This document shows positions 14,966 to 34,149 of a DNA stretch of 64,000 bases, piece after piece; within the stretch, counting starts at the first letter, position 1; each line of letters starts with the position of its first letter. The position numbers and the translations under genes were made by a program. This DNA is from Planctomycetota bacterium. GTDB taxonomy: Bacteria; Planctomycetota; B15-G4; JADJEK01. A model generated the notes under the pieces. The model was not told where the DNA came from, made no database searches, and saw only the letters and a list, made by a program, of their open reading frames with translations. The stretch covers positions 96,462-160,461 of the forward strand of contig JBGAIQ010000009.1 of the NCBI GenBank assembly GCA_044225365.1, read 5' to 3'.

Positions 14966-15411
14966 TCGTCCTCGTCCGGCTCCGATTCGTGCGGGGCCGC
15001 TTTATCCTCGGTCGGCTCGGGCGTCGCCTCGGGAGCTTCGGACTCGGGCAACTCTCCGCGGGCGCGGCGCTCCGCGTCGAGGTCCTTCAGGAGGTGGTCG
15101 ACGCGCATCGAGCCATCGATCGAATCGTCGTACTGGAAGATCAGGTGCGGAACGGTGCGGGTGCGCAGGACCTTTCCGAGCGTGTGCTGGATGAACCCGC
15201 GGGCTTCGTCGAGAGCGTGCTTCGTCTTGCTCTTGTCGCCCTCGCTGCCGAGCACGGAGTAGAAGACCTCGCAGCGCGACAGATCGCGCGCGAGCTTCAC
15301 GCGCGTGATCGTCGTGAACGCGATGCGCGGATCCTGCAATTCGAAGAGCACGATCTGCGCGACGCGCTCGCGGATCCGCTCTGCCAGTTTCGAGTCAGCG
15401 TTCCAGCCCAC
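14962..15411 (-). CDS. rbfA: Ribosome-binding factor A
   Basis: 149 aa. RIRERVAQIVLFELQDPRIAFTTITRVKLARDLSRCEVFYSVLG is the classic RbfA KH-like core. Position after infB/DUF503. Acidic C-terminal tail. Confidence 0.9.
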   Translation of the reverse strand: MGWNADSKLAERIRERVAQIVLFELQDPRIAFTTITRVKLARDLSRCEVFYSVLGSEGDKSKTKHALDEARGFIQHTLGKVLRTRTVPHLIFQYDDSIDGSMRVDHLLKDLDAERRARGELPESEAPEATPEPTEDKAAPHESEPDEDE

Positions 15412-15420
15412 GTCGCGCCT

Positions 15421-15711
15421 TCATTCGATCGATTGAATGTTCCAGTCGAGCAGCTCCGCCTCGGGATGTACCCGAAGCTGCTGCAGGATCGCGTCGAGTT
15501 CGCCGCGAACGTATCCGCTGTCGGAGCCGACCGCCGCGAACCCCAGGACGATCGACTGCCAGAGATCCTGGTCGTCGACCTCCGCCACCGACACGTTGAA
15601 GCGCGCGCGGATGCGGTCCTTGATGCTCCGCAGCACCTTGCGCTTCTCCTTCAAGGAGTGCGAGGACCGCAGCCGCATTCTCACTTCGAGAACGGAGGCT
15701 TCGAGCGCCAC
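15421..15711 (-). CDS. DUF503 (YlxP-like) protein, typical infB-rbfA intervening gene
   Basis: 96 aa (MALEASVLEVRMRLRSSHSLKEKRKVLRSIKDRIRARFNVSVAEVDDQDLWQSIVLGFAAVG). Conserved operon position. Confidence 0.8.
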   Translation of the reverse strand: MALEASVLEVRMRLRSSHSLKEKRKVLRSIKDRIRARFNVSVAEVDDQDLWQSIVLGFAAVGSDSGYVRGELDAILQQLRVHPEAELLDWNIQSIE

Positions 15712-15723
15712 GAGTACCTTCGA

Positions 15724-18700
15724 TCAGCTCGCACCCGCCGAGAAGTCGAGCGTGCGCTTCTCTTCTGCGACCTCGAAGGCCTCGACGATGTCGCCGACCT
15801 TGATGTCGTCGTAGCCATCGACCTTGAGACCGCACTCGAGGCCTTCCTTGACCTCGCGCACGTCGTCCTTGAATCGCTTGAGCGAGGCGAGTTTGCCGGT
15901 GTGGACGATGCGACCATCGCGCGTGAGGCGAATCTTCGCGTTGCGCTTGACGATGCCGTCCTTGACGATACAGCCAGCGATCGTGCCGACCTTCGAGACC
16001 TTGAAGATCTCGCGGATCTCGACGTGACCGATGACCGCCTCCTTCTGGATCGGCGACAGCTTGCCTTCCATCGCGGCCTTCACGTCGTCCACCAGCTGGT
16101 AGATGATCTCGTAGGTCCGGATATCGACGCCGCGCTGATCGGCGAGGGATCGCGCCTTGTCGTCGGCGACCACGTTGAAGCCGATGATCGTCGCTTCGGA
16201 AGCGATCGCGAGCAGCACGTCGTCCTCGGTGATGCCACCGAGCGCGTCGCGGATGATCTTGATCTTCACTTCCTTCTTCGACAGCGACTCGAGCTCCTTC
16301 TTCACGACTTCGAGCGAGCCCTTCACGTCGCAGCGGACGATGAGGAGCACTTCCTCGGCCTTGCCGGCTTCGAGGTTCGCGAACAGGTTCTCGAGCGTGA
16401 TGTTGTTGCGCGACGGACCCGTGACGCGGTCCTTGTTCTTCGAATGCAATCGCTCCTCGGCGACCTCGCGAGCCTGCTTCAAGCTCTCGAGAACGAAGAA
16501 CGGCGCCGAAGCGTCCGGCGGGTCGTTGAGGCCGAGCACGTTGACCGGAGTGGATGGCGCCGCTTCGGTGATGCTCGTGCCGTCGTCCGCGATGAGCTTT
16601 CGGATGCGACCGTAGCTCGTGCCCGAGAGCATCACGTCGCCGACGCGGAACGTGCCCTCCTGCACCAGCACCGTCGCGATCGCGCCGAGCTGATCGTCCT
16701 TGCGCGCCTCGATCACGGTGCCGCGCGCCTCGCGCGTCGGGTCGGCCTTGAGGTCCATGACCTCGGCCTGCAACGTGATCTTCTCGAGCAATTCGTCGAT
16801 CCCGCGGCCGGTCGTCGCCGAGGTCTTCGCGACCTGGACGTCGCCGCCCCATGCCTCGACGAGCACGCCCGCGGTGGCGAGTTGCTGCATGACACGGTCG
16901 GCGTTCGCTTCGCCGCGGTCGATCTTGTTGAGTGCCACCACGATCGGGCACTTCGCGGCCTTCGCGTGCTGGATCGCCTCCTCGGTCTGCGGCATGACGC
17001 CGTCGTCGGCGGCGACGACGAGCACGACGATATCGGTCACGTTCGCGCCGCGGGCGCGCATCTCCGTGAACGCCTTGTGACCCGGCGTGTCGAGGAGCGT
17101 GATCTTGTGGCCGGTCGGCGACGTCACGCTGTACGCGCGCATCGACTGCGTGATGCCGCCGGCCTCACCCGCTGCGACGTTCGAGTTGCGAATGCGGTCG
17201 AGCAGCGAGGTCTTGCCATGGTCGACGTGGCCGAGGAACGCGACGACGGGCGGGCGCGGTTGCAGCCGACCGGTTTCCTCGCGGGCCGCGAGCTTCTTGT
17301 CCATCGCATCGACCTTGGCCATCAGCGTCTGTTCGAGGTTCTGCTTCGCGACGATGTTCACTTCGCGATTGCGAGCCGCCGCGACTTCGAGCACGGCCAT
17401 TTCGTTCAACGCGCTGTTCACACCGGCTTCGTGACCGCCGCCGAGAAGGATGCGCAAGATCTCGGAAACCTTTGCGCCGAGCAACGACGAGAGATCGCGC
17501 ACACTGATCGGAACCGCGACTTCGAGCGGACCGGTGGGGACCGGCGGAGCCTGGGGCTTCTTCGCTTTGCGCGGACCGACGCGGCGCGGCGGTCGCCGCA
17601 GACTGTTCGCCGCCTGCCGCAGGCGGATGCTCTGCAGCAGCGGATCGTCCTCGTCGTCCGGATTCCATGCCGCGGAGTCGGAACGTCCGCGGATCCCGCG
17701 TTTCTTCGCGTTCTCCGCTTCGGTGATCGGATCGAGGATCGGACCCCGTCCGGGACCGCGCGCCGCGGCAGCGCCCGCATCGGGGCTCGCGCCCGGCGCG
17801 TTCGTCGTCGTCGGACCCGGAGCGGTCCGCATCTGCCGCTGCCGCTCGAGTTCCTCGCGAGGCAGCTCGATACGACCGAGGATCTTCGCGCCACCCGCCG
17901 GGCGAGAAGGACGCTTGATCGGACTCTGCGGCGCCGCGCCCGTGGCGGCGGTGCCCGCTCCACCCTGCCCGCCCGGCGCGCCGTGCTGGCTGGAAGGATC
18001 GTTCGTGCGAGGCGGCGGCGGAGCCACCGGCCCACCGCGAACGGTGCGCCCGCCCGGGAGATTCGCGCCCGACATCGAACCGAGGGATCCGATCGGTCCG
18101 CGAGCTGCGATCGAAGGCCGCGCCGGCGGCGCGGAGTGACTGGGAGACGGCGGCGCCGTCGAAGGCGATGGCGTACGCGGCGGCGCGGGCGGCACGGGCG
18201 CAGCGGGCGTCACCGCGGCCGCGGCCGGCCGCACGGGCTCGGATGGATGACTCTCCTTCGGCTTCGCCGCGGGCACGTGCGCGGGCGCTACCGCGGGCTT
18301 CTCCGCTTCGGGGGCCACGCTCGCGGGAGCCGCCGGCGGCTCGACGCGCGCGACCGGAGGGGCGGCGCTCTGGGGTGCGGGCGACGGAGGAGCCGTCGGA
18401 GCCGCAGCGACCGGTGCCACGGGCTCGGGGGCACTCACGCTCGAGCTCTCGCTCTCGCTCGAACCTTCGAAGCCACTCTCACCGGGCACGGACTCGTAGG
18501 AGTCGCCATCGCCCTCGGTCGCTTCGCCTTCGTTCTCGGAGGTGCGCACGCGCATGCGGCGCTTGCGCGGCTCCGCCTTCGCGGCGTCGGCAGGAGCGAC
18601 TTCCACGGCCGCGACCGGCGGCGGCGTCGAATCGCCGTGTTCTTCGCGGTAGGCCGCCTTGAGCAGAGCGATCTCGCCGACCGTCAAGGTCGCCGAGTGA

Positions 18701-18837
18701 TTGCGCGCCTTGAGGCCGAGCTCCTTCGCGAGAGCGAGCAGGAGCTTGCTCTCGGCGCCGATTTCCTTGGCCAATTCGTGAAGTCTCATCGTGTGATCAC
18801 CGCGTACGTCGCGACCTCGGAGGTCGGCGACGCTCAC
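15724..18837 (-). CDS. infB: Translation initiation factor IF-2
   Basis: 1037 aa. Long low-complexity P/A-rich N-terminus. G domain [22 protein letters not shown]-terminal beta-barrel domains. 4-nt overlap with the nusA stop. Confidence 0.95.
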
Positions 18838-20090
18838 GCGCCTCCTGTCGAGGCGTCGCCAGCGCTTGCGTTCGCGTCCGGTTTGGCCGGGGATTCCGCG
18901 GACGCCGAACCGCTCGTCGCGGAATCGGGCGCCTCGGACTTCGATTCCTTGTCCTCACCGCGCGCGGCGGAGAGTTCAGCGCGGAGCCGGCGTTCGAACT
19001 CGTCGGCGCCGACGGGGCTCGCGGGGGTCGTCGAGGACGACGACTCCGGCGAAGCGTTGCCCGGCGCGACGCCGCCGGTGAGCAGCGCTTCGCGCGCCTT
19101 CTCGACCTCGGCATCGGCCGCACTGCCACGCGGCTCGTCGTACGCAGCCTGCGTCGGGCTCTTGATCTTGATGTCGTAGCCGGTGAGACGCGAGGCGAGT
19201 CGCACGTTCTGGCCCTTGCGACCGATCGCGAGCGAGAGCTGGTCGTCGTTCACGAGCACGTGAGCGATCTGGTTGGCGTCGTCGAGCTCGATCGAGTTGA
19301 TCGTCGCTGGCTTGAGCGCCTGCTGGATGAACTCTTCGGTGTCGTCGCTCCAACGGATGATGTCGATCTTCTCGCCGTTCAACTCGTCGGTGATCGCCTT
19401 GATGCGACTGCCGCGAATGCCGACGCAGGCGCCGATGCAGTCGACGCGCGAATCGATCGAATTGACCGCGATCTTGGTGCGGAAGCCCGGCTCGCGTGCC
19501 ACCGCTCGGATCTCGATCACGCGATCGGAGATCTCCGGCACTTCGAGCTCGAAGAGCTTGAGGACGAGCTCCGGTGCCGCGCGCGAGAGCATGATCTTGA
19601 CCTTCGGGCCGACCTTCTTGACGTCGTACACGATGGCCTTGATGCGGTCGCCCGGGTTGTAGTTCTCGGTGCGCACCTTCTCGTGCTTCGGGACGATGCC
19701 CTCGGCACGACCCAGGTTGACGATGATGTTGCCGAGCTCGATGCGCTGTACCGCACCGGACACGATCGTGTTGACCTTGTGCTCGTAGTCGCCGTAGATG
19801 ACGTCGCGTTCGGCGTCGCGGATTCGCTGGATGATGACCTGCTTCGCCGTCTGCGCGGCGATGCGGCCAAGCTCGGTCATGTTGATGCCTTCGGCTTCGA
19901 ACTCGCCGTCCCAGACATCGACCTTGCCGGATTCACGATCGATCTCGACGGCAAGGCCTTCGCGCTCGCCGTAGCGCTTCTTGACGGCGGTCAGCAACGC
20001 GCTCTCGATCGCTTCGAACAGGATCTCTTTGTCGATATCCTTGTCGCGATGGATGGCGTCGACCAGTCGAATGAGCTCTTCGCCGTTCAT
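18834..20090 (-). CDS. nusA: Transcription termination/antitermination factor NusA
   Basis: 418 aa from MNGEELIRLVDAIHRDKDIDKEILFEAIESALLTAVKKRYG. S1 and two KH domains. Extended acidic/low-complexity C-terminus. The ORF-track start at 20351 is trimmed to this internal ATG. Confidence 0.9.
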   Translation of the reverse strand: MNGEELIRLVDAIHRDKDIDKEILFEAIESALLTAVKKRYGEREGLAVEIDRESGKVDVWDGEFEAEGINMTELGRIAAQTAKQVIIQRIRDAERDVIYGDYEHKVNTIVSGAVQRIELGNIIVNLGRAEGIVPKHEKVRTENYNPGDRIKAIVYDVKKVGPKVKIMLSRAAPELVLKLFELEVPEISDRVIEIRAVAREPGFRTKIAVNSIDSRVDCIGACVGIRGSRIKAITDELNGEKIDIIRWSDDTEEFIQQALKPATINSIELDDANQIAHVLVNDDQLSLAIGRKGQNVRLASRLTGYDIKIKSPTQAAYDEPRGSAADAEVEKAREALLTGGVAPGNASPESSSSTTPASPVGADEFERRLRAELSAARGEDKESKSEAPDSATSGSASAESPAKPDANASAGDASTGGA

Positions 20091-20310
20091 GGCCTCGGTA
20101 CCGTCCGATCCGTTCGAATCGGCGGCGCTGTCCTTTGGATCAGGTGATGAAAATCCGTCGCTCGCGTCTTCGGATCGCGAAACGACCGTTCGGTGAATGA
20201 CCGAGCGAGCGCACCCTCGGGCTTTCGCCTCGAAGGCCGCTACCCCGCGATTCACCGACCTGCACCCCCGACTCCGGACCACCAGAAACACGACGTACGA
20301 GGCGACCTCC

Positions 20311-20339
20311 AAAAAAAGAAAGTGGGCAGAGCCCACTTT
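20311..20339 (-). terminator. Terminator-like hairpin + U7 tract on the minus strand within the nusA 5' leader (possible attenuator or upstream sRNA/gene terminator)
   Basis: On the minus strand: AAAGUGGGC-UCU-GCCCACUUU (9-bp perfect stem, 3-nt loop), then CUUUUUUU. It lies ~220 nt upstream of the nusA start. No rimP gene precedes it. Confidence 0.45.
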
Positions 20340-20523
20340 GCGGGGGTACACCTCGTGGTGCAGGCGGCGCTATCGTAAGCCGAGTCGTGAGGCCTTTCAA
20401 TTGCTTTCGCCCTACCGCCCACGCGGCCCGGTAAATAACCGTGAGACCGGGCTGCGTCGAATCGACCGCGATCCAGACTCCCCAAATGCCCAGTCGAAAG
20501 ACCTCTCGAGGCCAAGAACGTAC

Positions 20524-22506
20524 ATGACTGCCCGTTCCAAGCTGTTTCTCGGCCGCGTGGCGCTCGCGGTGTTCGGCCTCGGCACGCTGGGCCCGAGCCC
20601 ACGGGCAGCCGCTCGACAGCACGAAACAGAAACGCCCGTTCCCCCGCCAGCCCAGAAGCCGACGACCCCGGGCCAGGAAAATCCTCGCCGCGCATCCCGA
20701 GACGCGACGATCGAAAGCTTGATCTTCGGACCGAGCGGACTCGTGTCCGATGGCCCCCCCGGTGCCGCGGCCGTCGCGCTCGAAGAGGCTCTCACGGCGA
20801 GCGCACACCGCCTGCGGGCGATCACCGAAGCCTGCCCCCGCCCGCTCGGGGCGATCGGTCTCGACTTCGCGAGGGCTGCAGCGACCCGTCTCGACCCCAC
20901 TGCGCGACGCATCGCGACGGAACTTGCGGCGCGGGTGACTCCCTCCGACGCCGAGGACTGGCTGCTCGCGGGAGTCTCTCCCTGGCCTCCCGACGCGGGC
21001 GCCGCGACTCCCGTTCCGAGTCTGCCGCTCCCCGTGACGGACGTCCTCGACGCACTCGGTCGCGTCGGCAGCGAACACTCGAGCCACGCGATCGCCCGCT
21101 TCCTCGCCGCGAAGGACCCGCAGGTCGCGTACGCGGCGAAGAGCGCCGCCCTGCGCATCACGCCGCGCCTGCTCGCCCTCGGAAAGTCCGAGGAGGCCGC
21201 GCTCGCGCTGCGCGCCTTCGTCACCGGCGATCCGCGCGATCTCGTCCTGCGCGAGAATCTCGCCGTCGTGCTCGGCGTCTACCTCGAGCAGCCCGACGAG
21301 GGCCGCGCCGTCCTCGCGGCGTACCCCGAGACGGACGCGAGCCGCGGCCCGCTTTCGCACGACTTCGCCGAACTCGAAGTCGCACGCGCGATGATCGATT
21401 TCTTCGAAGGAGCGTCGGAGGGTGAACGCCACGCACTCGAACGACTGACGAGCGCCCGCGCGCGCGTGCTCGCCGCTCCGCCAGCGGTGGAAGCCGCGGC
21501 CGAGACTTTCGTGCGCGTCGAACTGTGTCGCGCGATCGTCCTGCTCGCGCAAGCGCAGCCCGATGTCGAAGCCGCCGCAAGAGCGATCGCGCTCGCCGTG
21601 GAGCACGCACCGCACGAGAACTCGCGCTACCGCTGCGACGACGCGCTCCATGGGCCGGCAGGACCGCGTGCCTGGCTCGAACGATTGCGGCGAATCGGTC
21701 GCCCCGAGATCCGTCGCGCGTTCTATCACGCGATGGCGAAGGCCGCGCACGCCGCGGATCCCGCCGCTTCTCCCGACGCCGAGATCCCGGCGCGCAGTTG
21801 GTCCGCGCTCTTCGCCGCGTCCGCCGCTCTCGACGACGGCGATCTCGACAGCGCGATCGAGAACGCGAGCGAACTCATCACGCGGATGCAGGGCTCGTCG
21901 GCGTGGTACGACCGCACGATGCTCGGAGAGGCCGAGTACGTGAAGGGAATGGCAACGCTCTTCCGGGGCGATGCGAAGGCAGCGTCCACGCTGCTCGAAT
22001 CCGCCTTCGCGCGGATCGAGGAGCTCGCGCGCGAGGAGGTCGACTCGTGGGCGCAGGACCGCATCGAACGCAACGCGCTCGTCGAAGCGGGCGCGGCGCC
22101 GATGCGCACGTCGCTCGCCTCGACCGAGGCGAGGATGGCACGCAGCGTCGTCGAAGCGGCGCTCGCGGCGAAGGATCGCAAGACGGCCCTGCGCTACGCC
22201 GCCGCCGCGGTCGCGGCCGATCCTTTCGATGACGCGTCGGTCGCACTCGAACTCGCCCTCGCCACGCCTGCCGAATCGAACCCGCGCGGCACGCGGGAGC
22301 GCGGCATGCGCGCCCTTTCGACCTTGCCCCGGTCGTCGGGGACGCTGCTCGATCTCGCTCGGCTCGCTGTCGCGCTGGGGGATGCGAGAGACGCTCAGAC
22401 GCTCTTCGAGCGACACGTCGAATGGAATGCCCTCACGCCTGCGCGCAAGGCGATCGAAGAGGGCCGCCGCGCCCGCGACCCTCTGCTCGCCACGATCGGG
22501 CGCTGA
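20524..22506 (+). CDS. Secreted Ala/Arg-rich helical-repeat hypothetical protein
   Basis: ~660 aa from [30 protein letters not shown] (signal peptide). Highly alpha-helical A/L/E/R-rich body resembling HEAT/TPR-like solenoids. No catalytic motif recognised. Confidence 0.55.
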
Positions 22507-22582
22507 GCTGCGGAAAACGCGACGAGTGGCGCGGGCGAACCGTCGCGGGATAGAATGCGCGGTCGTTCCCAGGAGCCGAGAC

Positions 22583-22789
22583 GTGAAGATTCGAATCGTC
22601 CTCAACGGACGCGTAAGAGAGATCGACGACACGACGACGATCGCGCAGCTCCTGCTCACCCTCGAGCAGAAGCCCGCGCTGCTCGCGGTCGAGCGCAATC
22701 AGCGCATCGTGCCGAAGGCGCTCCATGCGACGACCTGCCTCGCCGATGGCGACCAGATCGAGATCGTCACGTTCGTGGGCGGAGGCTGA
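22583..22789 (+). CDS. thiS: Sulfur-carrier protein ThiS
   Basis: 68 aa, GTG start: [68 protein letters not shown]. Ubiquitin-like fold ending in GG. Stop is 1 nt before the thiG ATG. Confidence 0.8.
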
Positions 22790-22790
22790 G

Positions 22791-23606
22791 ATGACGACGC
22801 AGGACGCAGCGACCGAATTCGCGATCGAACCGCTCGTGGTCGGTCCGTACACGATGAAGTCTCGACTCATCGTCGGCACCGGGAAGTACCGAGATTTCGA
22901 ACAGATGGAGCAGGCGATCGAGGCGTCGGGCGCCGATTGCGTGACCGTGGCGCTGCGCCGCGTCGACCTCTCCCAGAAGGAGACGATCCTCGATCATCTC
23001 GATCGGAAGAAGATCGTCCTCTTGCCGAACACCGCGGGCTGCTACACGGTCGAGGACGCGCTGCGCATCTCCCGCCTCGCGCGCGAGATGCTCGACACCA
23101 CGCTCGTGAAACTCGAAGTGATCGCAGACCCGGTGACGCTCCTGCCCGATCCCATCGCGACGCTCGAAGCCACCGCGGTGCTCGTGAAGGAAGGCTTCAC
23201 GGTGATGGCGTACACCAGCGACGATCCCGTGCTCGCGCGGCGGCTCGAGGCCGCGGGCGCGGCCGCCGTGATGCCGCTCGGATCCGCGATCGGTTCGGGG
23301 ATGGGCATTCTCAATCGCCACAACATTCGCCTGATCCGCGACACTTTGAAGTGCCCGGTGATCGTCGATGCCGGAGTGGGCACGGCGTCGGACGTGACGG
23401 TCGCGTTCGAACTCGGCGTCGCCGGTGTGCTGTTGAACACCGCGATCGCGCACGCGCAGGATCCCGTCCGCATGGCGCGGGCGATGCGGCTCGCGACCGA
23501 AGCCGGCATCCAGGCCTTCCGCGCAGGACGCATGCCGGCGAAGGCGTACGCGAGTCCGTCGTCGCCGACCGAGGGTCTCATCACGGGCGGGAGCAAGACG
23601 GCGTGA
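22791..23606 (+). CDS. thiG: Thiazole synthase ThiG
   Basis: 271 aa from [60 protein letters not shown]. Conserved ThiG TIM-barrel motifs ([19 protein letters not shown]). Confidence 0.9.
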
Positions 23607-24457
23607 CGGGCGTGGAAGACGAACTCGATTCCGGGGCCGCGGCGGATCTCGACGCGAAGGAAGCGCGACTGCGTAGAGCGGTGCGGGAGCTCGAAGGCGG
23701 CGTCGTCGTCGCGTTCTCTGGCGGCGTCGATTCGGCGCTCCTGCTCCTCGTCTGCGCGGACGAGCTGAAGGGCCGGGTGCTCGCGGTCACCGCCGAGTCG
23801 CCGTCGTTCCCGCAGCAGGATCGCCGCGACGCCGCACTCGTCGCGAAGCAGCTCGAGGTCGCTCACGTCAGCGTCTCGACGCACGAGATGAACGATCCGC
23901 AGTACGTCCAGAACGACGCCTCGCGCTGCTACTTCTGCAAGCACTCGTTGTTCGAGACCCTAGAGCCGATCGCGCGCTCCTCCGGCCTTCGCCATCTCGC
24001 GTTCGGCGCCAACCTCGACGACGAAGGCGATTATCGACCGGGCCATCGCGCCGCGGCGGAGTTCGCCGTCAAGGCGCCGCTGCTCGATGCGGGATTGCGA
24101 AAGGCCGACGTCCGCGCGCTCGCGAAGAAGCTCGGACTCTCGATCTGGAACAAGCCCGGCTCGGCGTGCCTCGCCTCGCGGATCCCCTACGGAACGGCGA
24201 TCGATCCCGCCGTCCTGGCGCGCGTCGACGCCGCGGAGAATGCGCTGCGGGAGCTCGGATTCCCGCAACTGCGCGTGCGGCATCATGGCGACGTCGCGCG
24301 TCTCGAGCTCGATCCAAGCGACATCGCGCGTGCGGCGGAATCGCGCGAGGCGATCCACGCGGTGTTGCGCGCACAGGGCTGGCGCTATGCGACGCTCGAT
24401 CTGCTCGGCTATCGCACGGGCAGTCTCAACGAAGCGCTGCCGCGACGCGAGACCTGA
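23603..24457 (+). CDS. PP-loop superfamily ATPase, LarE/TIGR00268-like sulfur transferase (CxxC + C type)
   Basis: 284 aa. GTG start overlaps the thiG stop (GTGA). PP-loop [14 protein letters not shown]. Cysteines RCYFCKH (CxxC) and [12 protein letters not shown]. The ORF-track entry 22937..24457 is trimmed. Confidence 0.8.
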
Positions 24458-24463
24458 ACGATC

Positions 24464-24479
24464 GGCGACCCGCGTCGCC
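24464..24479. terminator. GC-rich hairpin in the 24-nt gap between convergent genes (possible bidirectional terminator, no U-tract)
   Basis: ggcgac-ccgc-gtcgcc perfect 6-bp stem. Confidence 0.3.
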
Positions 24480-24481
24480 CA

Positions 24482-25765
24482 TCAGCCGCGGGTGCGGCGC
24501 AGGACGTCCGCGAGCGAGCGTGCCGAACGATAGCCGACGAGCTTCTCGACGATGCTTCCGTCCTTGTCGATGAAGACCATCGTCGGCACGATGGCCGCGT
24601 TGTGCCGCGCGGCGAGCGCGCGTTCGAGCGCCGGATTCAGTCGCACGCAGACGAAACGAGACCGCAAGAGCTCCGACACTTCGGCGTCCTGCAGAGTTCG
24701 CTGATCGAGATCACGCGCGATCTTCGACCAATCGGCGGTATAGAGCACGCAGAGCGTCTTCTTGTCCCTCTTCGCGAGCTCCTCGCCCTTGCCGATGTCG
24801 GTGAGCCATTCCACCGGCTTGTCGGTGCGGGGGCGCGGTGGCTCGAGCTGGAGCGGGTCGGAGTCGAGCAAGGCCTGCTGCGCGGAATCGACGCTCTCCT
24901 CGCCGACGTCGACCCGCCGCGCCTCCGGCATGAGACTCGTGATTCGATACGGAATGCCGCCGAACTGGATCGGAACGGTGCATGGAACGAGTTCGAGGCC
25001 CTGCGGGAGTGGCGCGCCTGGCGCGAGTTCGATCAGTGCCCAGCGTGCCGAGCCGACGGCGTACATCGCCGTACCGCTGTCGTCATAGAGCACGACCCGC
25101 GCGTCCTTGCCGAGCAGCTTCGCGGTTCCTTCGCGCCAGTTCGCATCGATCACGAAGAGCTTCGTCATCTCCGACGGATCGTTGGAGCGCGGGAGCCAGG
25201 AATAGAACGTGAATCGGCACGCGTCCTCGATCCGGTCCGAACCGCCGGACGTCTCAACCCTCGCGCCGAAGTAGACGGTGACGGGGACCGCGGTGAATTC
25301 GACGTAGTCGGTCTCGCGCTGCGGATCCTTCACGACGACACCCTTCACGGGCTCTTGTTCATCGCTCCCGGAGAAGGATTGATCGCGATCGCGATCGATC
25401 CACAGCAGGTCGTAGCGATGCGTCGAGGGATTCGATTGGTCGAGGATGATCGTCTGGCGCCCACCGCGGCCGAAGCGCACGATTCCGTAGAGCGGCGTGT
25501 CGCACCGGAGCTGCGGGAGTTGCTTGATCTCGAGCATCGGTTTCTGAGCGAGCGCGATGGCGGTCGGCGAGCGCGAGACGAACGGACGCTCAGCCGGGTT
25601 CCCGGCCACGAGTTCGAGGGGGAACGACGTCTTCTTGACGAGGTTTCCGGCCGTGATGCCAACCTGGTTCGGATCGTCCTGCTGCGGGTCGGGTTGTTGG
25701 GCGAACGCGCGGCTGAAGCACAGCGCGCCGAAGGCCACGGCGAAGGCGAACGGGAAACGAAGCAT
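24482..25765 (-). CDS. Secreted protein with C-terminal thioredoxin-fold domain lacking the CxxC active site
   Basis: ~427 aa from MLRFPFAFAVAFGALCFSRAFAQQ (signal). The C-terminus (KKTLCVLYTADWSKIARDL...IVPTMVFIDKDGSIVEKLVGY) is Trx-like, but the usual W-C-x-x-C reads W-S-K-I-A. Confidence 0.6.
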   Translation of the reverse strand: MLRFPFAFAVAFGALCFSRAFAQQPDPQQDDPNQVGITAGNLVKKTSFPLELVAGNPAERPFVSRSPTAIALAQKPMLEIKQLPQLRCDTPLYGIVRFGRGGRQTIILDQSNPSTHRYDLLWIDRDRDQSFSGSDEQEPVKGVVVKDPQRETDYVEFTAVPVTVYFGARVETSGGSDRIEDACRFTFYSWLPRSNDPSEMTKLFVIDANWREGTAKLLGKDARVVLYDDSGTAMYAVGSARWALIELAPGAPLPQGLELVPCTVPIQFGGIPYRITSLMPEARRVDVGEESVDSAQQALLDSDPLQLEPPRPRTDKPVEWLTDIGKGEELAKRDKKTLCVLYTADWSKIARDLDQRTLQDAEVSELLRSRFVCVRLNPALERALAARHNAAIVPTMVFIDKDGSIVEKLVGYRSARSLADVLRRTRG

Positions 25766-25829
25766 TCTCGAACTCTCTCTTCGAAGGAAGATCAGATTCT
25801 TCGGCGATCGACGGGCTCGCGCAAGAGCC

Positions 25830-27032
25830 CTACTTCTGGAAGATCGGCAAGTACTGCTGCGGCATGAGGAGGATGAGGCACGCGGACGCCGTGGAATAGA
25901 CTCGACCGTAGTCGCTCTCACCGATCGAGCCCTTCGGATCCTGGCTCTCCGCGAACTCGTCGACGATCGCCGTCTGCCACGCGCGGAACAGACTGGGATC
26001 ACGGTACAGGTAGTAGGCCTCTGCCGCATAGAGCCGCGCGTAGAAGGGATGAGTATCGCCGAGAGTGCGCAGGCTGGGATTCAGAACCGGATCCTTGATC
26101 TGCATGTACTCGATGCCGCGGTCGATCACGTCGCTGGCATAGTCGCCCGTGGCGTTGAGGGTCGCGATGGCGGCAGCCGTGAGTCCGTAACTCACCTGCT
26201 CCTTCATCATCTTGCTGTAGCAGAAGGCCCCGCTCGGCCGCTGGAGCTCCCTCACGTACTTCACGGCGTCGTCGATGCATTGCTTGTTGACGTAGATTCC
26301 GACGTCGCGTGCCGCTCGCAGGGCCTGGATCATCGTGATGGTGACCGACCCCTCGTGCTCGGCGTCTCCGGGCTCGTAATACCAGCCGCCATCCTTCGTC
26401 TGCGACCATTCGATGAGCTGGACGGCGTCGACGAGGATCCGGCGCAGCTCGGCCATCTCGCCGCGCACGCGCTTCACCGAGCCGTCCCCGTAGGCATCGT
26501 CGATGCGGTAGGTGCCATAGGCCTCGGCGAGGGCGAGGGTCGCGTACCCGTGGCCGTGCATCTTCGACGTCCCGTCACCGGGGAACGAGAAGTAGATGTG
26601 GTTGACGTCGATGTCCTCGGCCTTGTCCTCACCCAGAATCCGATGCGCGGTGAACGTCGTGGCGTTGCCGCACTTCATGAGGAACTGGATCGCCTTCTGC
26701 ACGTTCTCGCGATACGGCCCGCGGCCGAGCGTCGAGCCACCCGCCATGAACGCGAGCGCACTGAGGGCGGTCACGGCGACGGGAGCCGACGTCACTCCGG
26801 TATCGGACTTCGCCTTGTTGAACTGACCATCCTCGGCCTGTTGCTTCGCGAGCCACTCGAGCCCGCGCTGGCCGATCTCGAACGCGCGATCCTCGACCTC
26901 GCGCGTGGCGTGCTGGGAATTCCCGTCCGATCCGAAACCGGCGCCGCTCGGGCGGCACATCGCCTTCGCCGCGACGAGGATTGCCGCGACAGCGAGGACA
27001 GTGCTTACCGGGATGGCGCGGGCCGGGATCAT
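25830..27032 (-). CDS. Secreted QW-motif prenyltransferase/squalene-cyclase-fold repeat protein (paralog 1)
   Basis: 400 aa. Signal MIPARAIPVSTVLAVAAILVAAKA. Repeats such as LEWLAKQQAEDGQF and LIEWSQTKDGGWYYEP (QxxDGGW). C-terminal ...QQYLPIFQK. Homologous along its length to 32941..34149. Confidence 0.7.
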   Translation of the reverse strand: MIPARAIPVSTVLAVAAILVAAKAMCRPSGAGFGSDGNSQHATREVEDRAFEIGQRGLEWLAKQQAEDGQFNKAKSDTGVTSAPVAVTALSALAFMAGGSTLGRGPYRENVQKAIQFLMKCGNATTFTAHRILGEDKAEDIDVNHIYFSFPGDGTSKMHGHGYATLALAEAYGTYRIDDAYGDGSVKRVRGEMAELRRILVDAVQLIEWSQTKDGGWYYEPGDAEHEGSVTITMIQALRAARDVGIYVNKQCIDDAVKYVRELQRPSGAFCYSKMMKEQVSYGLTAAAIATLNATGDYASDVIDRGIEYMQIKDPVLNPSLRTLGDTHPFYARLYAAEAYYLYRDPSLFRAWQTAIVDEFAESQDPKGSIGESDYGRVYSTASACLILLMPQQYLPIFQK

Positions 27033-27742
27033 CAGGGCTGCTTGCTCTTGTTCCGCGTCCGGTAGTACTGCAACAGGAGCTCTCGATAGCGGTCCGGGAA
27101 CTCGTTCTGCGAGAGCTTCTGGAACATCTCCTGGACCTTCGGCGGCAGGACGCCCCAGCGGCCGGCGACGTTCTCGCGCTGGTACTTCTCCTTCTCCGAC
27201 GGCGGATCGACGCCATCCGCCTTCTGCTGATCCGGCTTGCTCTTGTCCGGCCCACCATCCTTCGGCTGGCCCGATTTCTCCTCGGGCTTCTGCTTGCCCT
27301 CGCCCTTGTCCTTCTCGCCTTGCTGCTTCAGCTTGTCGACCTCGGGATCCTTGCCCCGCTCGTCCTGCTGTTTCTGCTGGGGAGAGTTCTTGGGATCGGG
27401 CTCGCCCGACCCCTTGCCGCCGCTGTTGGACTGCCGCTTCGCCATGCGGACGAGTTCCTCGATGTCCGTCACGGCCTGCGACTGCTTGGATTGGATGTCC
27501 TTCAGCAGCTTGTCGAGATCGGCTTTCACCTGCTCGATCCTCGCGGCGGCATCCTTGGGCGCATCCTTCGCAGCCTGCAACAGCAGCTCGTCGATCTCGC
27601 CCATCTCCTTACGGATCTTGGCTTGGAGCTCCTTCGCCTTGATCTCGTCGGCTTGTCCCCCGTCCTGCGCGACCGCGCGCTGCGCGCTCACGCCCGTGAG
27701 GATCGCCGCGACGCAGAGGAATCGCTGGATGCGCGTGTTCAT
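27032..27742 (-). CDS. Secreted low-complexity K/E/Q/D-rich protein
   Basis: 236 aa. Signal MNTRIQRFLCVAAILTGVSAQRAVAQ. Extremely charged body (KGSGEPDPKNSPQQKQQDERGKDPEVDKLKQQGEKDKGEGKQKPEEKSGQPKDGG...). Start overlaps the upstream stop; its own stop overlaps the downstream start. Confidence 0.55.
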   Translation of the reverse strand: MNTRIQRFLCVAAILTGVSAQRAVAQDGGQADEIKAKELQAKIRKEMGEIDELLLQAAKDAPKDAAARIEQVKADLDKLLKDIQSKQSQAVTDIEELVRMAKRQSNSGGKGSGEPDPKNSPQQKQQDERGKDPEVDKLKQQGEKDKGEGKQKPEEKSGQPKDGGPDKSKPDQQKADGVDPPSEKEKYQRENVAGRWGVLPPKVQEMFQKLSQNEFPDRYRELLLQYYRTRNKSKQP

Positions 27743-30525
27743 TTGCCACCCGGGCCCTTCTCGTCCTTCACTTCGACCGGCGGCCCCTGCGAGTCGTCGA
27801 TCATGCCGCGGAAGAGTTTCGTGATCTCGGAGTGCTGTAGTCCGAGGCGGGTCAGGCGGTCACGCGAAATCGCGTCGAGACCACCCTCCGCATTGGCGCC
27901 CTGGAGCCGCATGAAGACGTCGAGACGCTTCATCATGCTCTCCTCCATTCGCTTCAACATGAGCAACTCGGCGACGGGCGGGATCAAGGGCTGCTTCTGT
28001 TGCTGCTGCGGCGAATTCCCGTTCTGGCCGTCCGGCGGCTGGCCCTCCTCGCCCTCCTTCGGCTTGAGCTTCGCCTGCTTGCGGCGCTCGACTTCTTCAT
28101 CGAGGGTCGCGAGAAGCGTGTCGTAGCGATCGAGGATGTCGCGCGCGATCGACTGCGTGAAGTCGTCGGTGCGGTAGGGAGCGGTCCCGAGCAGTTCGGT
28201 CACTCGATCGAAATCGCCGTCGTTCTGCTCGAGCGCGAACGTGAAGACCGTCGCTCCATCCTCGCGCAGCTTCGACACGACCTCCTGATTCTGCACCTTC
28301 AGTTCTCGCGACTTCTGCGCGAGCTTCTTCGACGTATTCTGTCCGACTCGCGACAGCTTGCCCTTGCTCTGGCGCTCGAGTTCGAGCTCCTCGGTCTTGG
28401 CTACGACCTCACCCTGGCCCGTACGAAGGAGGGTCAACTGCTCCTTCACCTTGAAGAGCAACTCCTCCTGGCGAAGGTTCTGGTACTTGTCCTTCTCCTG
28501 CTTCAGTTCCTGCTCGGCCTTCTTCAAGAACTTCTCGGCTTCTTCCTGGCGCGGGGTTGCTTCCTCGCCCTGCTCCTTCTTGAGGCTCGATGCCGCCTGA
28601 TCCATCTTCGATGCGGCGGCGGAGAGCGACTGCTCGCGTTCGGGCTTCTTCTCGTCGCGGATACGATCCATCAGCTCTTTCAGCTTCTTCTCGAGCTCCC
28701 GCTGACGGCTCTCGAGGTCGTCGTACTTCTGCTGCTGATCCGCGGCCGAAGGGGAGTCCTTCGCGGACTGCTCGGCTTCCGACTGCTGCTGGTCGAGCTC
28801 CTGCGAGGCCTTCTCGAGTTGTTCACCCGCCTCGCTCTGGCTCTTCGCTGCTTTCTCCTGCTGGCCGCTGCGCATCGATTGCGCCGCCTGCTGCATCGAC
28901 TGCGCCGCCGACTCCACGGCCTTCGAGGCTCCCGACGGCGAATCCTTCTTCATGGCCGCGTCGAGGCGGGAGAGCGTCTTCGCGAGAGCCTCGGCCTGCT
29001 GGCTCGCGTACTCCTGCTTCGCGGCGAGGGAGTCGCTCCGTTCCTGCGCAGCCTTCTCGGCACCGTCGATCGCGTTGCGCGCCTCCTTCATCTTCTCGAG
29101 CGCATCGCGTTGCGCCGCGGCCGCGCCTTCGAGGTCGGGCTTCTCCATCTCGGAACCGGCTTCGTTCGCCGCTTGCGCGCTCTGCTCGAGCGCCGCCGCC
29201 GCGTCGCTCGCTCGCTTCTGCGCCGCTTGGTTTCGTTCGGCGGCCTGCGGATCGCCCGCACTCTTCGAATCGCGTGAGTCCTGCGTCGGCAACTTCTCCA
29301 CCCGGGAAGCAGCTTCTGCGAGCTTCTTCGCTTCGTCACCGAGTTCGCGTTGCTGGTCGGCCGCCTTCGCGTCGGTCGCCGACTTCGAGAGCGCCTTGTC
29401 GAGCTGCGCCTTCGCGGCATCGACGTTCTCGTTCTCGGCGTTCGCGAGCTGCGCCGCCGTGGACGCGTCGCCGTTCTTCTCGGCGTCGCGCGCCGCCTTC
29501 ATCCGCTCCGAAGCACTCGCGAGTGCTTTGGCGAGGGCTTCGCGGGCGGTTGCGATCTCGGCGGCGTTCGCCGGATCCTTCGCGCCGTTCTCGCCGTTCT
29601 TTGCGTCGGCCGCGGTCGCCTCCTGTGACAACGCGTCCTTCGCCGCCGCGAGTTGTTCGGCAACCTTCTTCATCGCGTCGGCGTCGCCCGCGGCCTTCGA
29701 GTCGTCAGATGCGTCGGCCTTGGACTTCGGGGAGCCGTCGGCGGAGGCTGCCTCGGCCTTCTTGGCAAGGTCCTTCGCGAGAGCCTTCTGGGCTTCGATC
29801 GCGGCCTGTGCAGCGAGGAATCCGGGAGCCGCCCGCTCGAGCGAGTTCTCGGTCGCTGCGAGCGCGGCATTCTGCTTCGCGATCAGGTTCTCCAACTGGT
29901 GCTTCAGAGCGGCGAGTGCCGAGTCCTTCGACTGCGACTCGCTCGTGTTCTCCTTCGCCAGCTTCTGTTCGTTCTCCTTCAGGTCCTTCAACTGACTCTT
30001 CGCCTGCTCGGCGAGAGCCTTCGGATTCGTCGCCAGAACGGTCGTCTCGTTCGTCAGCTTCTGCTGCTCGCTCCGCACCTGCGCAATGTCGCGGACCGCT
30101 TGTTCGAGCTTCTTGGCTTCGGCGTCGAGCGAATCGAAGTCCGTTCGATCGAGGAGGATCGCGTACACGGACTCGAGATCCTTGAGCAGGTCCTCCTGCT
30201 CCTTCACCGAGGCGAACTCCTGGCGGTCGAGACTCGACCCGATCTTCTCGATCGTTCGGGTCAGCTCGCGCTTCTTGATCTCGGCGATCGCATTGTCGAG
30301 CAGGTCGGCGCTGTGCTGCTTTCCCTCCGCCCGCAGCCGCTTCGACAGCGACTCCATGTTCTTCTTCGTCGACTCGATGCGGCTCTTGAGGTTCTGCTGC
30401 TCCTGCGAGATGCGTTTGACGTCGGTCGCGGCGTCGGTCTCATCGCTCGCCCACGAGCGTGCGAACGGCAGTGCACAGAGCGACAGCGAGAGGAGACACG
30501 GAGCGAAGTGGAATCGGCTTCTCAT
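27739..30525 (-). CDS. Secreted giant coiled-coil protein (A/K/E/Q/S-rich, ~928 aa)
   Basis: From MRSRFHFAPCLLSLSLCALPFARSWASDE (signal). Almost entirely heptad-like charged helical sequence. The ORF-track start at 30669 is trimmed to this internal ATG. Confidence 0.6.
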   Translation of the reverse strand: MRSRFHFAPCLLSLSLCALPFARSWASDETDAATDVKRISQEQQNLKSRIESTKKNMESLSKRLRAEGKQHSADLLDNAIAEIKKRELTRTIEKIGSSLDRQEFASVKEQEDLLKDLESVYAILLDRTDFDSLDAEAKKLEQAVRDIAQVRSEQQKLTNETTVLATNPKALAEQAKSQLKDLKENEQKLAKENTSESQSKDSALAALKHQLENLIAKQNAALAATENSLERAAPGFLAAQAAIEAQKALAKDLAKKAEAASADGSPKSKADASDDSKAAGDADAMKKVAEQLAAAKDALSQEATAADAKNGENGAKDPANAAEIATAREALAKALASASERMKAARDAEKNGDASTAAQLANAENENVDAAKAQLDKALSKSATDAKAADQQRELGDEAKKLAEAASRVEKLPTQDSRDSKSAGDPQAAERNQAAQKRASDAAAALEQSAQAANEAGSEMEKPDLEGAAAAQRDALEKMKEARNAIDGAEKAAQERSDSLAAKQEYASQQAEALAKTLSRLDAAMKKDSPSGASKAVESAAQSMQQAAQSMRSGQQEKAAKSQSEAGEQLEKASQELDQQQSEAEQSAKDSPSAADQQQKYDDLESRQRELEKKLKELMDRIRDEKKPEREQSLSAAASKMDQAASSLKKEQGEEATPRQEEAEKFLKKAEQELKQEKDKYQNLRQEELLFKVKEQLTLLRTGQGEVVAKTEELELERQSKGKLSRVGQNTSKKLAQKSRELKVQNQEVVSKLREDGATVFTFALEQNDGDFDRVTELLGTAPYRTDDFTQSIARDILDRYDTLLATLDEEVERRKQAKLKPKEGEEGQPPDGQNGNSPQQQQKQPLIPPVAELLMLKRMEESMMKRLDVFMRLQGANAEGGLDAISRDRLTRLGLQHSEITKLFRGMIDDSQGPPVEVKDEKGPGGK

Positions 30526-30569
30526 GGTGTGCCTTACGACCGATTGCGCGCGGCGGGGTTCCATCGTTG

Positions 30570-32906: not shown

Positions 32907-32940
32907 CGGTTGATCGGGTCCGTCTCGTGGTCCATCGGGC

Positions 32941-34149
32941 TCAGCGCTGCAGGATCGGCAAGTACCGGTAAGGGACCTGCAGGATGATCGACGCTACGGC
33001 GGTCGAGAAGGCGTCGCCGGGACCCTCCTTGTTGCGCCAGAAACCGTCGCGCGTCTGCACGTTCAACAGGTCCGCCTTGATGCTTTTATAGTACCGACTC
33101 CACCACGGGTCGCCCGCGACAAAGAACGCCTGCACCGCGTAGTAGTGGCCGTACCAGAAGAAGAAGTGTTCGTAGCGACTCCGCATCTGGTCGTACTCGC
33201 GCTCGAGGAGATCGAGCGACTCGCGAAGGGTTTCGTTCGAGTACACGCCTGCGTTGTAGAGCGATGCGATCCCCGCCGCCGTGAGCGCGAACGAACTGCG
33301 CGTGTTGTCCTGCTTCTGATACTTGAACGAGCCGCGCTTCAAGAAGTAGTAGTCGTTCGAGTCGCCGTATCCCGCGTAGGGGTCGTCCTCCGGCTGATAG
33401 GAGTCGATGACGTACTTCACGGCGTTGTCGATCGTGGTCTTCGGGACCTTGATCCCGATGTTGCGAGCCGAGCGCAGCGCCATGATCTGGCAGACCGTGA
33501 TCGACATGTCGGACTCGATCGCGAACGGCTCGTAGCGCCACGAACCGTAGCTGTTCTGCGATTCGACGATGAGGTCGACGGCGCGCTGCAGTTTCTCGCG
33601 CAGGTCGTTGCGATGCGTCATCCCGACGACTTCGGACAGGAAGAGCGTCGCGAACGCGTGGCTGTACATGCGCGTTCCGTCGCGCGAGATGTAACCGTGC
33701 TCGTCGACCGAGGTGAGGATGAAGTCGATCGCCTTCGTCAGCGTCTCGCCGTAGCGGCCGCGACCCGGCAGATTGCCGCCCGCGAGGTACGCCATGCCCG
33801 CGAGCGCCGTCACCCCGACGTGATGGACCTTCTCGTGCTCGACCATGTAACTCTGATTCAGCTTGAAGCCGACATCCCCGGTCCACGAGCCGTCGGCGTT
33901 CTGCTGCTTCTGGAGCCAGCGCAGCGCCTTGTCGACCGCGGTCGCCACCGCGGGATCGGGATCATCGGCACCCACGTTCGAATCGTCGCTCGCAGTGACG
34001 GGGACGGGTGCGATGGGCGACACCCCGAACGACACGAGCGGCGCGAGGAGGACGAAGCCCACGCCGAGTCCGAGCGACCGAAACATTCTCATGGATTCGA
34101 TTCCTTCAAGCGTTCGCGCGGGGTCCATCGACTTTCCTTTGCCGCTCAC
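32941..34149 (-). CDS. Secreted QW-motif prenyltransferase/squalene-cyclase-fold repeat protein (paralog 2)
   Basis: 402 aa. LRWLQKQQNADGSWTGD, VESQNSYGSWRYEP. C-terminal ...VPYRYLPILQR. Clear homology to 25830..27032. 4-nt overlap with the upstream gene. Confidence 0.7.
   Translation of the reverse strand: MSGKGKSMDPARTLEGIESMRMFRSLGLGVGFVLLAPLVSFGVSPIAPVPVTASDDSNVGADDPDPAVATAVDKALRWLQKQQNADGSWTGDVGFKLNQSYMVEHEKVHHVGVTALAGMAYLAGGNLPGRGRYGETLTKAIDFILTSVDEHGYISRDGTRMYSHAFATLFLSEVVGMTHRNDLREKLQRAVDLIVESQNSYGSWRYEPFAIESDMSITVCQIMALRSARNIGIKVPKTTIDNAVKYVIDSYQPEDDPYAGYGDSNDYYFLKRGSFKYQKQDNTRSSFALTAAGIASLYNAGVYSNETLRESLDLLEREYDQMRSRYEHFFFWYGHYYAVQAFFVAGDPWWSRYYKSIKADLLNVQTRDGFWRNKEGPGDAFSTAVASIILQVPYRYLPILQR

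Follow-up and report, generated by a model that had tools for sequence, protein, structure and literature searches.

The 64-kb window of Planctomycetota DNA studied here (contig JBGAIQ010000009.1; the window is the whole stretch that was analysed, and all coordinates are window positions) has a G+C content of 65.8% and carries three closely packed genes on its forward strand: thiS for a ubiquitin-like sulfur carrier, thiG for a thiazole synthase, and a third gene for a PP-loop protein of 284 amino acids that we assign to LarE, the sulfur transferase of nickel-pincer cofactor synthesis (Table 1). A spacer of a single base (22790) separates the thiS stop codon from the thiG start, and the start codon of larE lies on the stop codon of thiG, an overlap implying translational coupling of the two genes. 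Reading the sequence reproduced exactly the gene coordinates, both junctions and the protein length of the original prediction, which had been made without database searches; its wording that the genes are translationally fused does not hold, as they only overlap or abut and no protein fusion is formed.

The operon is bounded by a convergent gene with a thioredoxin-like C-terminal domain, 24 nt past the larE stop codon. On the other side, upstream of thiS, lies the gene of a large TPR-like protein. The window copy of this gene has no Pfam match; a homologous gene of 645-702 aa, with faint TPR matches and 28-32% identity, occupies the same place in all relatives of the clade described below, and in the more distant locus L099 the TPR gene is also found upstream of thiS. 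It is thus a conserved neighbour of thiS-thiG-larE, but its membership in the operon is only putative.

Pfam scans of about 40 open reading frames (ORFs) distributed over the window detected neither additional thi or lar genes nor a ThiF-family E1. The genes thiF, thiO, thiH and thiE are missing from it, as had been claimed from the sequence, and so are thiC and thiD. A thiamin pyrophosphate (TPP) riboswitch was found neither in the whole window at gathering score nor in positions 22300-22800 upstream of thiS at E<=1, and no Rfam family reached its threshold anywhere in the 64 kb. A promoter and terminator scan of positions 20000-24800 returned nothing on the forward strand near the operon, a result that is uninformative for a planctomycete.

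The first two genes are orthodox. ThiG matches PF05690 with an E-value of 2.9e-104 (348 bits, profile positions 3-247 of 247) and is 72-87% identical to the thiazole synthases of its relatives. Its Lys107 lies in the conserved VKLEV motif and is, as we presume from B. subtilis ThiG, probably the Schiff-base lysine of thiazole synthases. ThiS matches PF02597 (4.5e-17) as well as the thiS equivalog profile TIGR01683, with 74.6 bits against a cut-off of 37.45, and its VGGG terminus is present in all ThiS copies of the clade. In carriers of the ThiS, MoaD and TtuB type such a Gly-Gly terminus is the site of thiocarboxylation (PMC1779556). As judged by these profiles and motifs, ThiS is a canonical sulfur carrier and ThiG a canonical thiazole synthase.

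Five close relatives of ThiG with 326-341 aa (P0143, P0150, P0154, P0164 and P0188) have been called as ThiS-ThiG fusions matching both PF02597 and PF05690, in which the VGGG end of ThiS runs through a short linker into ThiG without a break. As written, such a fusion would block the carrier C-terminus unless it were cleaved; it could be real, or it could be a read-through in gene calling. Another relative, P0239 (463 aa), combines a ThiG 66% identical to that of the window with a C-terminal extension of about 200 aa that has no family assignment. We considered it as a ThiG-LarE fusion and saw neither a PP-loop nor a CxxC motif in the C-terminal 200 aa, an inspection by eye without a search against LarE.

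Table 1. Genes, junctions and functional residues of the thiS-thiG-larE locus, followed by its neighbours and further genes of the window
Feature	Position	Strand	Remarks
thiS	22583..22789	+	GTG start at 22583, TGA stop at 22787-22789; 68 aa; AGGAG 8 nt 5' of start
ThiS C-terminal Gly-Gly	22781..22786	+	translation ends in IVTFVGGG, then stop
thiG	22791..23606	+	ATG start at 22791, TGA stop at 23604-23606; 271 aa; GGAGG 7 nt 5' of start
ThiG Lys107, conserved VKLEV motif	23109..23111	+	position read from sequence
GTGA overlap, larE GTG start on thiG TGA stop	23603..23606	+	read from sequence
larE (PP-loop ORF)	23603..24457	+	GTG start at 23603-23605; 284 aa
PP-loop SGGVDS, aa 39-44, ATP-binding and adenylation site	23717..23734	+	S39, G40, G41, D43 and S44 invariant in 76 homologues
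CYFC (C109, C112), first two ligands of predicted [4Fe-4S] cluster	23927..23938	+	invariant in 76 homologues
C189 (third predicted ligand, nt 24167-24169), S192, R193	24167..24181	+	all three invariant
R224, R226 (RVR), equivalent to LpLarE Arg212, Arg214	24272..24280	+	aligned with vRvRfh; invariant in 76 homologues
Upstream TPR-like large-protein gene	20197..22506	+	true start uncertain; 76-nt gap to thiS
Convergent gene, thioredoxin-like C-terminal domain	24482..26029	-	PF13098 and PF13899 at C-terminus
MoxR AAA ATPase	46519-47622	-
DUF58 protein	45645-46598	-
BatA-VWA protein	43330-45789	-
VWA/GATase1-like protein	40874-43429	-
CLC chloride channel with CBS domains	38952-41375		adjoins Bat/MoxR string

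Identity and active site of the PP-loop protein

The PP-loop protein matches TIGR00268, the profile of LarE, whose reaction turns P2CMN into P2TMN, with 312.1 bits against a cut-off of 150, over profile positions 2-259 of 259. A single-sequence search of the PDB aligned it with L. plantarum LarE (5udq, 9e-50) over query residues 14-281; the alignment with M. maripaludis LarE (8cnz) was weaker. With a profile built from 76 sequences the two structures were found at 8e-80 and 1e-42, respectively, and TtuA at 1e-7 over profile positions 18-137, the N-terminal PP-loop part alone. An AlphaFold2 model made from the same 76-sequence alignment reached a pLDDT of 94.1 and a pTM of 0.90; when it was submitted to Foldseek, the top 50 PDB matches were all chains of L. 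plantarum LarE (E 1e-26 to 1e-22, TM 0.72-0.91).

Other PP-loop families fit far less well. Pfam itself returned only weak N-terminal matches (NAD_synthase, QueC, Asn_synthase, tRNA_Me_trans). The profiles of QueC (TIGR00364, 22.6 against a cut-off of 150.3), NadE (TIGR00552, 31.5 against 63.65), MnmA (25.3 against 284) and TilS_N (21.4 against 93.6) were matched in the N-terminal PP-loop region only, and neither Pfam nor NCBIfam gave a match to ThiI. For TtuA/NcsA, PF01171 (ATP_bind_3) scored 22.1 bits, below its cut-off of 27, and the flanking zinc-finger cysteine motifs of that family are missing from the protein, which contains four cysteines in all. Discrimination among LarE, TtuA, QueC and ThiI by profiles thus leads to LarE. 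The original prediction had called the protein LarE/TtuA-like; the first half of this label is borne out by the TIGR00268 score and the CxxC...C pattern, while the TtuA half, with PF01171 below cut-off and the PDB match at 1e-7, has to be dropped. Nor does the protein group with the cysteine-less enzymes related to NadE and GuaA. All profile evidence considered, the third gene is to be assigned to LarE and not to TtuA, QueC, ThiI or NadE, and it diverges no further than the LarEs encoded beside larB or larC.

The SGGVDS and CYFC motifs and the third cysteine that had been noticed earlier were indeed located, at residues 39-44, 109-112 and 189, and the role ascribed to the PP-loop in LarE is taken from PMC9283937. 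CYFC aligns with the RCYNCKK stretch of M. maripaludis LarE 8cnz, and the positions of C109, C112 and C189 all align with cysteines of that protein; the only other cysteine, C51, is not conserved. In T. maritima LarE, the cysteines of the CxxC-C pattern bind a [4Fe-4S] cluster needed for activity, and a shift of the third cysteine by one residue between the L. plantarum and T. maritima enzymes has been reported (PMC9283937). In a pairwise alignment the window protein shows this offset, with C189 one residue past the column of L. plantarum Cys176 and Ala188 facing Cys176. By motif, the window LarE is therefore of the [4Fe-4S] type (CxxC...C), with the cluster itself a prediction. Ser180, Arg212 and Arg214 of L. 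plantarum LarE (LpLarE) bind the phosphate of P2CMN (PMC9283937); S192 corresponds to Ser180 by alignment, and the two arginines have their counterparts in R224 and R226. As far as sequence can tell, there is no hint of a changed LarE substrate.

Distribution of the linkage and the neighbours of larE

The thiS-thiG-larE arrangement recurs in ten relatives of the window (L003, L004, L008, L009, L011, L013, L096, L097 and the two near-identical Logan contigs L001 and L002), several of them labelled as Planctomycetota metagenome-assembled genomes, and in looser form in L099, so that the linkage is not unique to one genome. Identities within this clade are 56-75% for LarE, 48-61% for NusA and 42-52% for ThiS; in the comparison that gave the NusA and ThiS values, ThiG reached 72-77% and LarE 56-68%. 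The window, its ten relatives and L099 all carry thiS and larE in one directon. The thiG/larE overlap is 4 nt (GTGA) or 8 nt (GTGnnTGA) in all eight members whose junction was read (the window, L003, L004, L008, L009, L011, L013 and L096), and the gene calls of L097 also give 4 nt; the spacer between thiS and thiG ranges from 1 to about 105 nt in the clade.

Members of the clade share more than the operon, namely infB and nusA on the other strand, the TPR-like gene (645-770 aa), thiS-thiG-larE and the convergent thioredoxin-like and prenyltransferase-like genes. Because the whole neighbourhood is syntenic, conservation of gene order alone is no proof of selection on the position of larE. In L011 and L096 the thioredoxin-like gene is missing and the prenyltransferase-like gene follows directly after larE, with thiS-thiG-larE intact, and this combination of loss and retention helps against an explanation by pure synteny.

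In a ThiG-based search, identity stepped from at least 71% within the clade to at most 68%, and three relatives beyond this step were examined. In L098, an rbfA-infB-nusA string faces thiS-thiG, which is followed by a convergent desaturase gene; in L100, TPR-thiS-thiG is followed by an Rce1-like gene. Neither locus contains larE. In L099 (ThiG 66%, NusA 38% identity), TPR-thiS-thiG is followed by a 292-aa gene, an MFS transporter and a LarE, all encoded on the same strand and spaced 23, -1, 16 and 5 nt apart. The LarE of this locus reaches 318 bits with TIGR00268, shares 48% identity with that of the window and has both CYFC and ACLSSR. From these three contexts it follows that thiS-thiG beside nusA is the older unit, which larE joined in part of the phylum. 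The association has outlived deep divergence and, in L099, the insertion of two genes. Note that the L099 string from thiS-thiG to larE includes two conserved-looking ORFs of 292 aa (5819-6697) and 644 aa (8743-10677) that match no Pfam or NCBIfam family above threshold; the MFS transporter lies at 6697-7881.

For comparison we assembled 85 LarE loci outside the clade, with 44-56% identity; a metagenome scan yielded 80 of them, and species genomes together with other look-ups the remaining five. Neither thiS nor thiG occurs in any of the 85 within the flanks examined, which extend at least 1 kb upstream of larE in 55 cases. The linkage is thus lineage-restricted, in keeping with the earlier remark that the association is not standard. 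A neighbour-joining tree of 93-95 LarEs shows the thiSG-linked clade as monophyletic and groups it with the larB-linked LarE of L015 as its nearest relative outside; deep in the tree, where identity is about 50%, the branching is star-like and unreliable and leaves undecided whether larE of L099 and larE of the clade share one origin.

What stands beside larE elsewhere was determined by clustering the ORFs within 3.5 kb of the gene in the 85 loci and naming the clusters by family profiles. LarB (NF033503) is present in ten loci and LarC (PF01969) in nine, and about 70 of the 85 lack both genes within 5 kb. Checking the context of orthologs, as had been suggested, showed linkage to thiSG in the clade and larB or larC near some of the other LarEs. 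The commonest sulfur-related context is NifS (TIGR03402, above cut-off), present in seven loci; in four of these (L047, L058, L090, L092) the end of larE and the beginning of nifS share 4 nt, and in L058 NifU comes next. CysK is present in six loci, three of which also have the homocysteine sulfur-incorporation pair HcyBio and NIL-ferredoxin, and in L073 it occurs with MnmA and a ThiI-like PP-loop gene, the latter two flanking larE. A MoeB-subfamily E1 (NF004281, above cut-off and without a rhodanese domain) lies upstream of larE in six loci of one high-GC lineage (L052 4103-5801, L048 2601-4432, L033, L043, L065 and L067), at a distance of 9-26 nt in L048 and L052, where both gene ends were read. 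These MoeB-larE pairs have a glucodextranase-like gene and an FGGY kinase as flanking neighbours, and no carrier ORF ending in GG was found near them. MobA-like transferases occur in six loci, and some lineage-specific neighbours are plainly unrelated, such as a PilZ response regulator, a glucoamylase and an FGGY kinase.

In all these contexts LarE scores 310-328 bits against TIGR00268, and in the tree the LarEs linked to larB or larC are interspersed with those linked to NifS, CysK or MoeB, which suggests one orthologous LarE with varying donor genes alongside. From the position of larE beside NifS-NifU, CysK-HcyBio and a MoeB-type E1 we read these neighbours as suppliers of sulfur. In several low- to mid-GC lineages (L058 1466-7425; L090 2030-6958; L073 757-6647; L047; L092) larE lies inside a sulfur-assimilation cluster whose members are cysK, HcyBio (PF01837), NIL-ferredoxin, a hexapeptide (CysE-like) acetyltransferase, larE, nifS and nifU, and in these five loci neither larB nor larC is found within 5 kb of larE.

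ThiS as a candidate sulfur donor of LarE

The reading that we favour, though tentatively and at a little below even chance, is that the thiocarboxylate of ThiS feeds both ThiG and LarE in the way that TtuB feeds TtuA, as gene order and precedent suggest. The thiS-thiG-larE operon would then be a shared sulfur-relay module that keeps the carrier and its two clients in step. ThiS would be adenylated and thiocarboxylated by an E1 encoded outside the operon, and the resulting thiocarboxylate (ThiS-COSH) would serve ThiG in building the thiazole. It would also serve LarE, which would take up the sulfur at the open iron of its three-cysteine [4Fe-4S] cluster to give [4Fe-5S], and the sulfide would attack the adenylated carboxylate of P2CMN, twice per cofactor. 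Such a scheme would parallel the transfer from TtuB-COSH to TtuA and the conversion of PdtH and QbsE thiocarboxylates into pyridine and quinoline thiocarboxylic acids.

The individual steps have precedents. LarE of the [4Fe-4S] type adenylates each carboxylate of P2CMN and transfers the non-core sulfide of a [4Fe-5S] cluster; IscS loads this cluster sulfide in vitro, and the authors liken the mechanism to that of TtuA and TtuB (PMC9283937). The cluster of TtuA desulfurizes TtuB-COSH (PMC7138817). In the operons for PDTC and quinolobactin, a carboxylate-AMP ligase, a ThiS/MoaD-like carrier (PdtH) and an E1-rhodanese together make a thiocarboxylic acid out of a pyridine or quinoline carboxylate (PMC1779556). 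At the locus itself, tight coupling has been retained despite identities as low as 56% for LarE and 48% for NusA, which hints at ThiS as the donor. The distant L099 (NusA 38%, LarE 48%) has likewise kept thiS, thiG and larE in one string, and the sulfur-supply genes beside larE in other lineages point the same way.

Several points weigh against it. Overlaps of 4 nt are common among adjacent operon genes in compact GC-rich genomes, and LarE, as we take it, lacks the extra zinc-finger domains of TtuA. A contact between ThiS and LarE is postulated from gene order and analogy; as the whole block is syntenic, the retention of larE could reflect inertia, and all cases of thiSG-larE may stem from one or two events, so that the number of independent observations is one or two. 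The sister Planctomycetota L098 and L100 have thiS-thiG without larE. No small ThiS-like ORF ending in GG was found near other LarEs, in a crude search that misses carriers with C-terminal extensions. Finally, only a cysteine desulfurase has been demonstrated as donor to LarE of the [4Fe-4S] type (PMC9283937).

Nearly as likely as transfer from ThiS, and itself a somewhat doubtful proposition, is co-expression without direct transfer. LarE would here be an ordinary enzyme of the NPN cofactor that is supplied by the persulfide of a cysteine desulfurase or by free sulfide and has no contact with ThiS; larE would have been appended to an old thiS-thiG pair in the ancestor of the clade and kept there by synteny or by common regulation of two sulfur-consuming pathways. 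The demonstrated IscS reaction (PMC9283937) agrees with this, as do the larE-nifS pairs that make up the commonest sulfur-related context elsewhere, the unrelated genes of the syntenic block (nusA/infB, the prenyltransferase-like gene), the confinement of the linkage to one lineage with its absence from the sisters and the 85 other loci, and the unrelated neighbours (PilZ response regulator, glucoamylase, FGGY kinase) that larE has acquired in other lineages. It fits less easily with the overlap with thiG retained across deep divergence, with a linkage that in L099 outlasts the insertion of two genes, and with the independent origin of larE beside NifS, CysK or MoeB in other lineages; moreover, a genome has very few sulfur-carrier genes, and larE is unlikely to have come to lie next to one of them by chance.

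Two further explanations change the task of LarE itself. It is very improbable that the enzyme serves thiamin synthesis by making the ThiS thiocarboxylate, either converting the C-terminal glycine into an acyl-AMP or giving cluster sulfide to ThiS-AMP, and so replaces ThiF, the ThiI/IscS step or both. Translational coupling of larE to thiG would suit such a role, and so would the failure of the Pfam scans to find thiF/moeB or a cysteine desulfurase in the 64-kb window, but since thi genes are commonly scattered across genomes, a thiF missing from one window means little. The net LarE reaction is also the one that ThiS requires (PMC9283937 for LarE; PMC1779556 for ThiS). However, there is no change in S192, R224 and R226, the phosphate binders of P2CMN, or anywhere in the pocket consensus, the TIGR00268 score is that of the larB-linked LarEs (about 310-328 bits), and the nearest relative outside the clade (L015) adjoins larB. 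We also considered whether larE had displaced thiF in place; neither sister lineage (L098, L100) has thiF at the position of larE, which argues against it. Of the outcomes that the original prediction had offered for the linkage, neither the variant thiazole route nor the thiolation of tRNA finds support, with every substrate-binding residue of LarE present and no thiF at this site in the sisters. An unlikely explanation, too, is that a LarE-family enzyme acts here on another pyridine nucleotide or carboxylate, for example on an adenine-dinucleotide form of the pincer or on a thio-acid, and that the link to thiSG reflects this pathway. Genome mining anchored on LarE did lead to an ornithine cyclodeaminase dependent on NPAD, a pincer variant (mentioned in PMC13524815), and some 70 of the 85 LarE loci have no larB or larC within 5 kb. 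Against this, the sequence shows no departure from the LarE consensus, and conserved candidates for a partner enzyme beside larE are limited to thiS and thiG.

If ThiS does act as the donor, it may be a dual-client carrier that physiologically supplies both ThiG and [4Fe-4S] LarE in these Planctomycetota, and the pincer cofactor would then join thiamin, molybdopterin and the thio-siderophores as the fourth pathway to be supplied by a ubiquitin-like carrier; we hold this wider claim to be possible but open to considerable doubt. LarEs of the [4Fe-4S] type are the majority, and what is known of their cellular sulfur source comes solely from a reaction in vitro, with IscS of E. coli (PMC9283937). 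A positive result would answer where cluster-type LarEs obtain their sulfur in vivo, make the MoeB-larE pairs of the other lineage a second face of the same route, and extend the logic of TtuA and TtuB, from carrier thiocarboxylate through open cluster iron to adenylated substrate, beyond tRNA to a small-molecule cofactor. After a negative one, the annotation as larE would still be correct, but the gene would be no more than a passenger on the thiSG transcript. The operon is in any case a candidate lead and not a demonstrated new mechanism, but one that is cheap to test and that puts forward ThiS-COSH as the possible in vivo donor of [4Fe-4S] LarE. In addition, the repeated occurrence of larE beside nifS-nifU, cysK-HcyBio and moeB may guide the reconstitution of the NPN cofactor in heterologous hosts.

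Remaining genes of the window and comparison with known systems

Beyond the operon, on the reverse strand, a pair of very large DUF4175-like proteins lies between two alpha/alpha-toroid proteins that resemble prenyltransferases and squalene-hopene cyclases (25830-27032, 27739-32993 and 32941-34350). The DUF4175-like proteins are of low complexity and rich in Ala, Glu and Lys, and the whole block is conserved 3' of larE in the clade. A string of Bat/MoxR 'aerotolerance' genes occupies 40874-47622 on the same strand (Table 1). At the other end of the window, a 1363-aa RHS-repeat/YD-shell protein (953-5044) stands beside a 1229-aa Ser/Thr kinase-AAA-TPR (STAND-like) protein (5097-8786), both on the reverse strand. 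The infB gene (15724-18837, reverse strand) has an extended Pro/Ala-rich stretch in its N-terminal region, and antisense to it runs an open frame of 1396 aa (14989-19179, forward strand); this and the many other long shadow ORFs in the GC-rich window are frame artefacts, not genes. Enolase (50195-51784), DJ-1/PfpI (52167-52793), a periplasmic Cu/Zn superoxide dismutase (55016-55708) and a kynureninase-like class-V aminotransferase (58961-60271), all of them housekeeping or oxidative-stress genes, complete the list. The last, which also has a match to PF22580, the C-terminal domain of kynureninase, is the sole pyridoxal phosphate-dependent enzyme of class V that the window encodes.

Canonical thiamin thiazole operons combine thiS-thiG with thiF, thiH or thiO, thiE and thiC, and thiS and thiG are adjacent in most bacteria. 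Both genes are likewise orthodox and adjacent in the window, which differs in having neither thiF, thiH, thiO, thiE, thiC and thiD nor a TPP riboswitch, and in having larE, not a thiamin gene, in third place. No report of LarE as a neighbour of ThiS or ThiG was found in the literature searched, where one paper on Thi4 draws an analogy to LarE and lists it among the neighbours of Thi4; nor was a report linking LarE to Planctomycetes found there. Isosphaera pallida is a planctomycete. It possesses an active LarA (PMC11796402). PP-loop partners go unmentioned in the 2006 survey of ThiS/MoaD neighbourhoods (PMC1779556).

Among characterized enzymes, the LarEs of T. maritima and M. maripaludis (8CNZ) come closest, sharing with the window protein the TIGR00268 match, SGGxDS, CxxC...C with a shifted third cysteine, and the Ser/Arg/Arg phosphate site. 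The larE of T. maritima lies far from the cysteine desulfurase genes of that organism (PMC9283937), whereas larE in the window overlaps thiG downstream of thiS; unlike the T. maritima enzyme, the window LarE is known from its sequence and model alone. L. plantarum LarE (5UDQ) is a full-length homologue with the same ATP and substrate-phosphate sites, but it has no CxxC (Trp, Tyr and Ala take the cysteine positions) and sacrifices the sulfur of Cys176, where the window protein has Ala; the window protein also carries three cysteines of the cluster type.

The TtuA-TtuB system of Thermus thermophilus likewise pairs a PP-loop enzyme carrying a three-cysteine [4Fe-4S] cluster with a ThiS-like carrier ending in GG, and the loading of its open iron is the model for the transfer proposed here. 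TtuA belongs to a PP-loop family different from that of the window LarE, however, and acts on tRNA; and where TtuB serves as a dedicated carrier, the window has a bona fide ThiS, which LarE would share with ThiG. The PDTC and thioquinolobactin pathways (PdtH/QbsE) have the same net chemistry as LarE, an aromatic N-heterocycle carboxylate being adenylated and converted into a thiocarboxylic acid, with a ThiS/MoaD-like protein thiocarboxylate providing the sulfur (PMC1779556). In them an acyl-AMP ligase carries out the adenylation, as against a PP-loop/[4Fe-4S] enzyme in the window, and their operons bring their own E1-rhodanese and JAB peptidase, neither of which is present in the 64 kb. Each gene of the thiS-thiG-larE operon is thus a member of a well-known family, and the novelty would lie in the joining of a cluster-type LarE to a ThiS carrier, a wiring that we infer from gene order.

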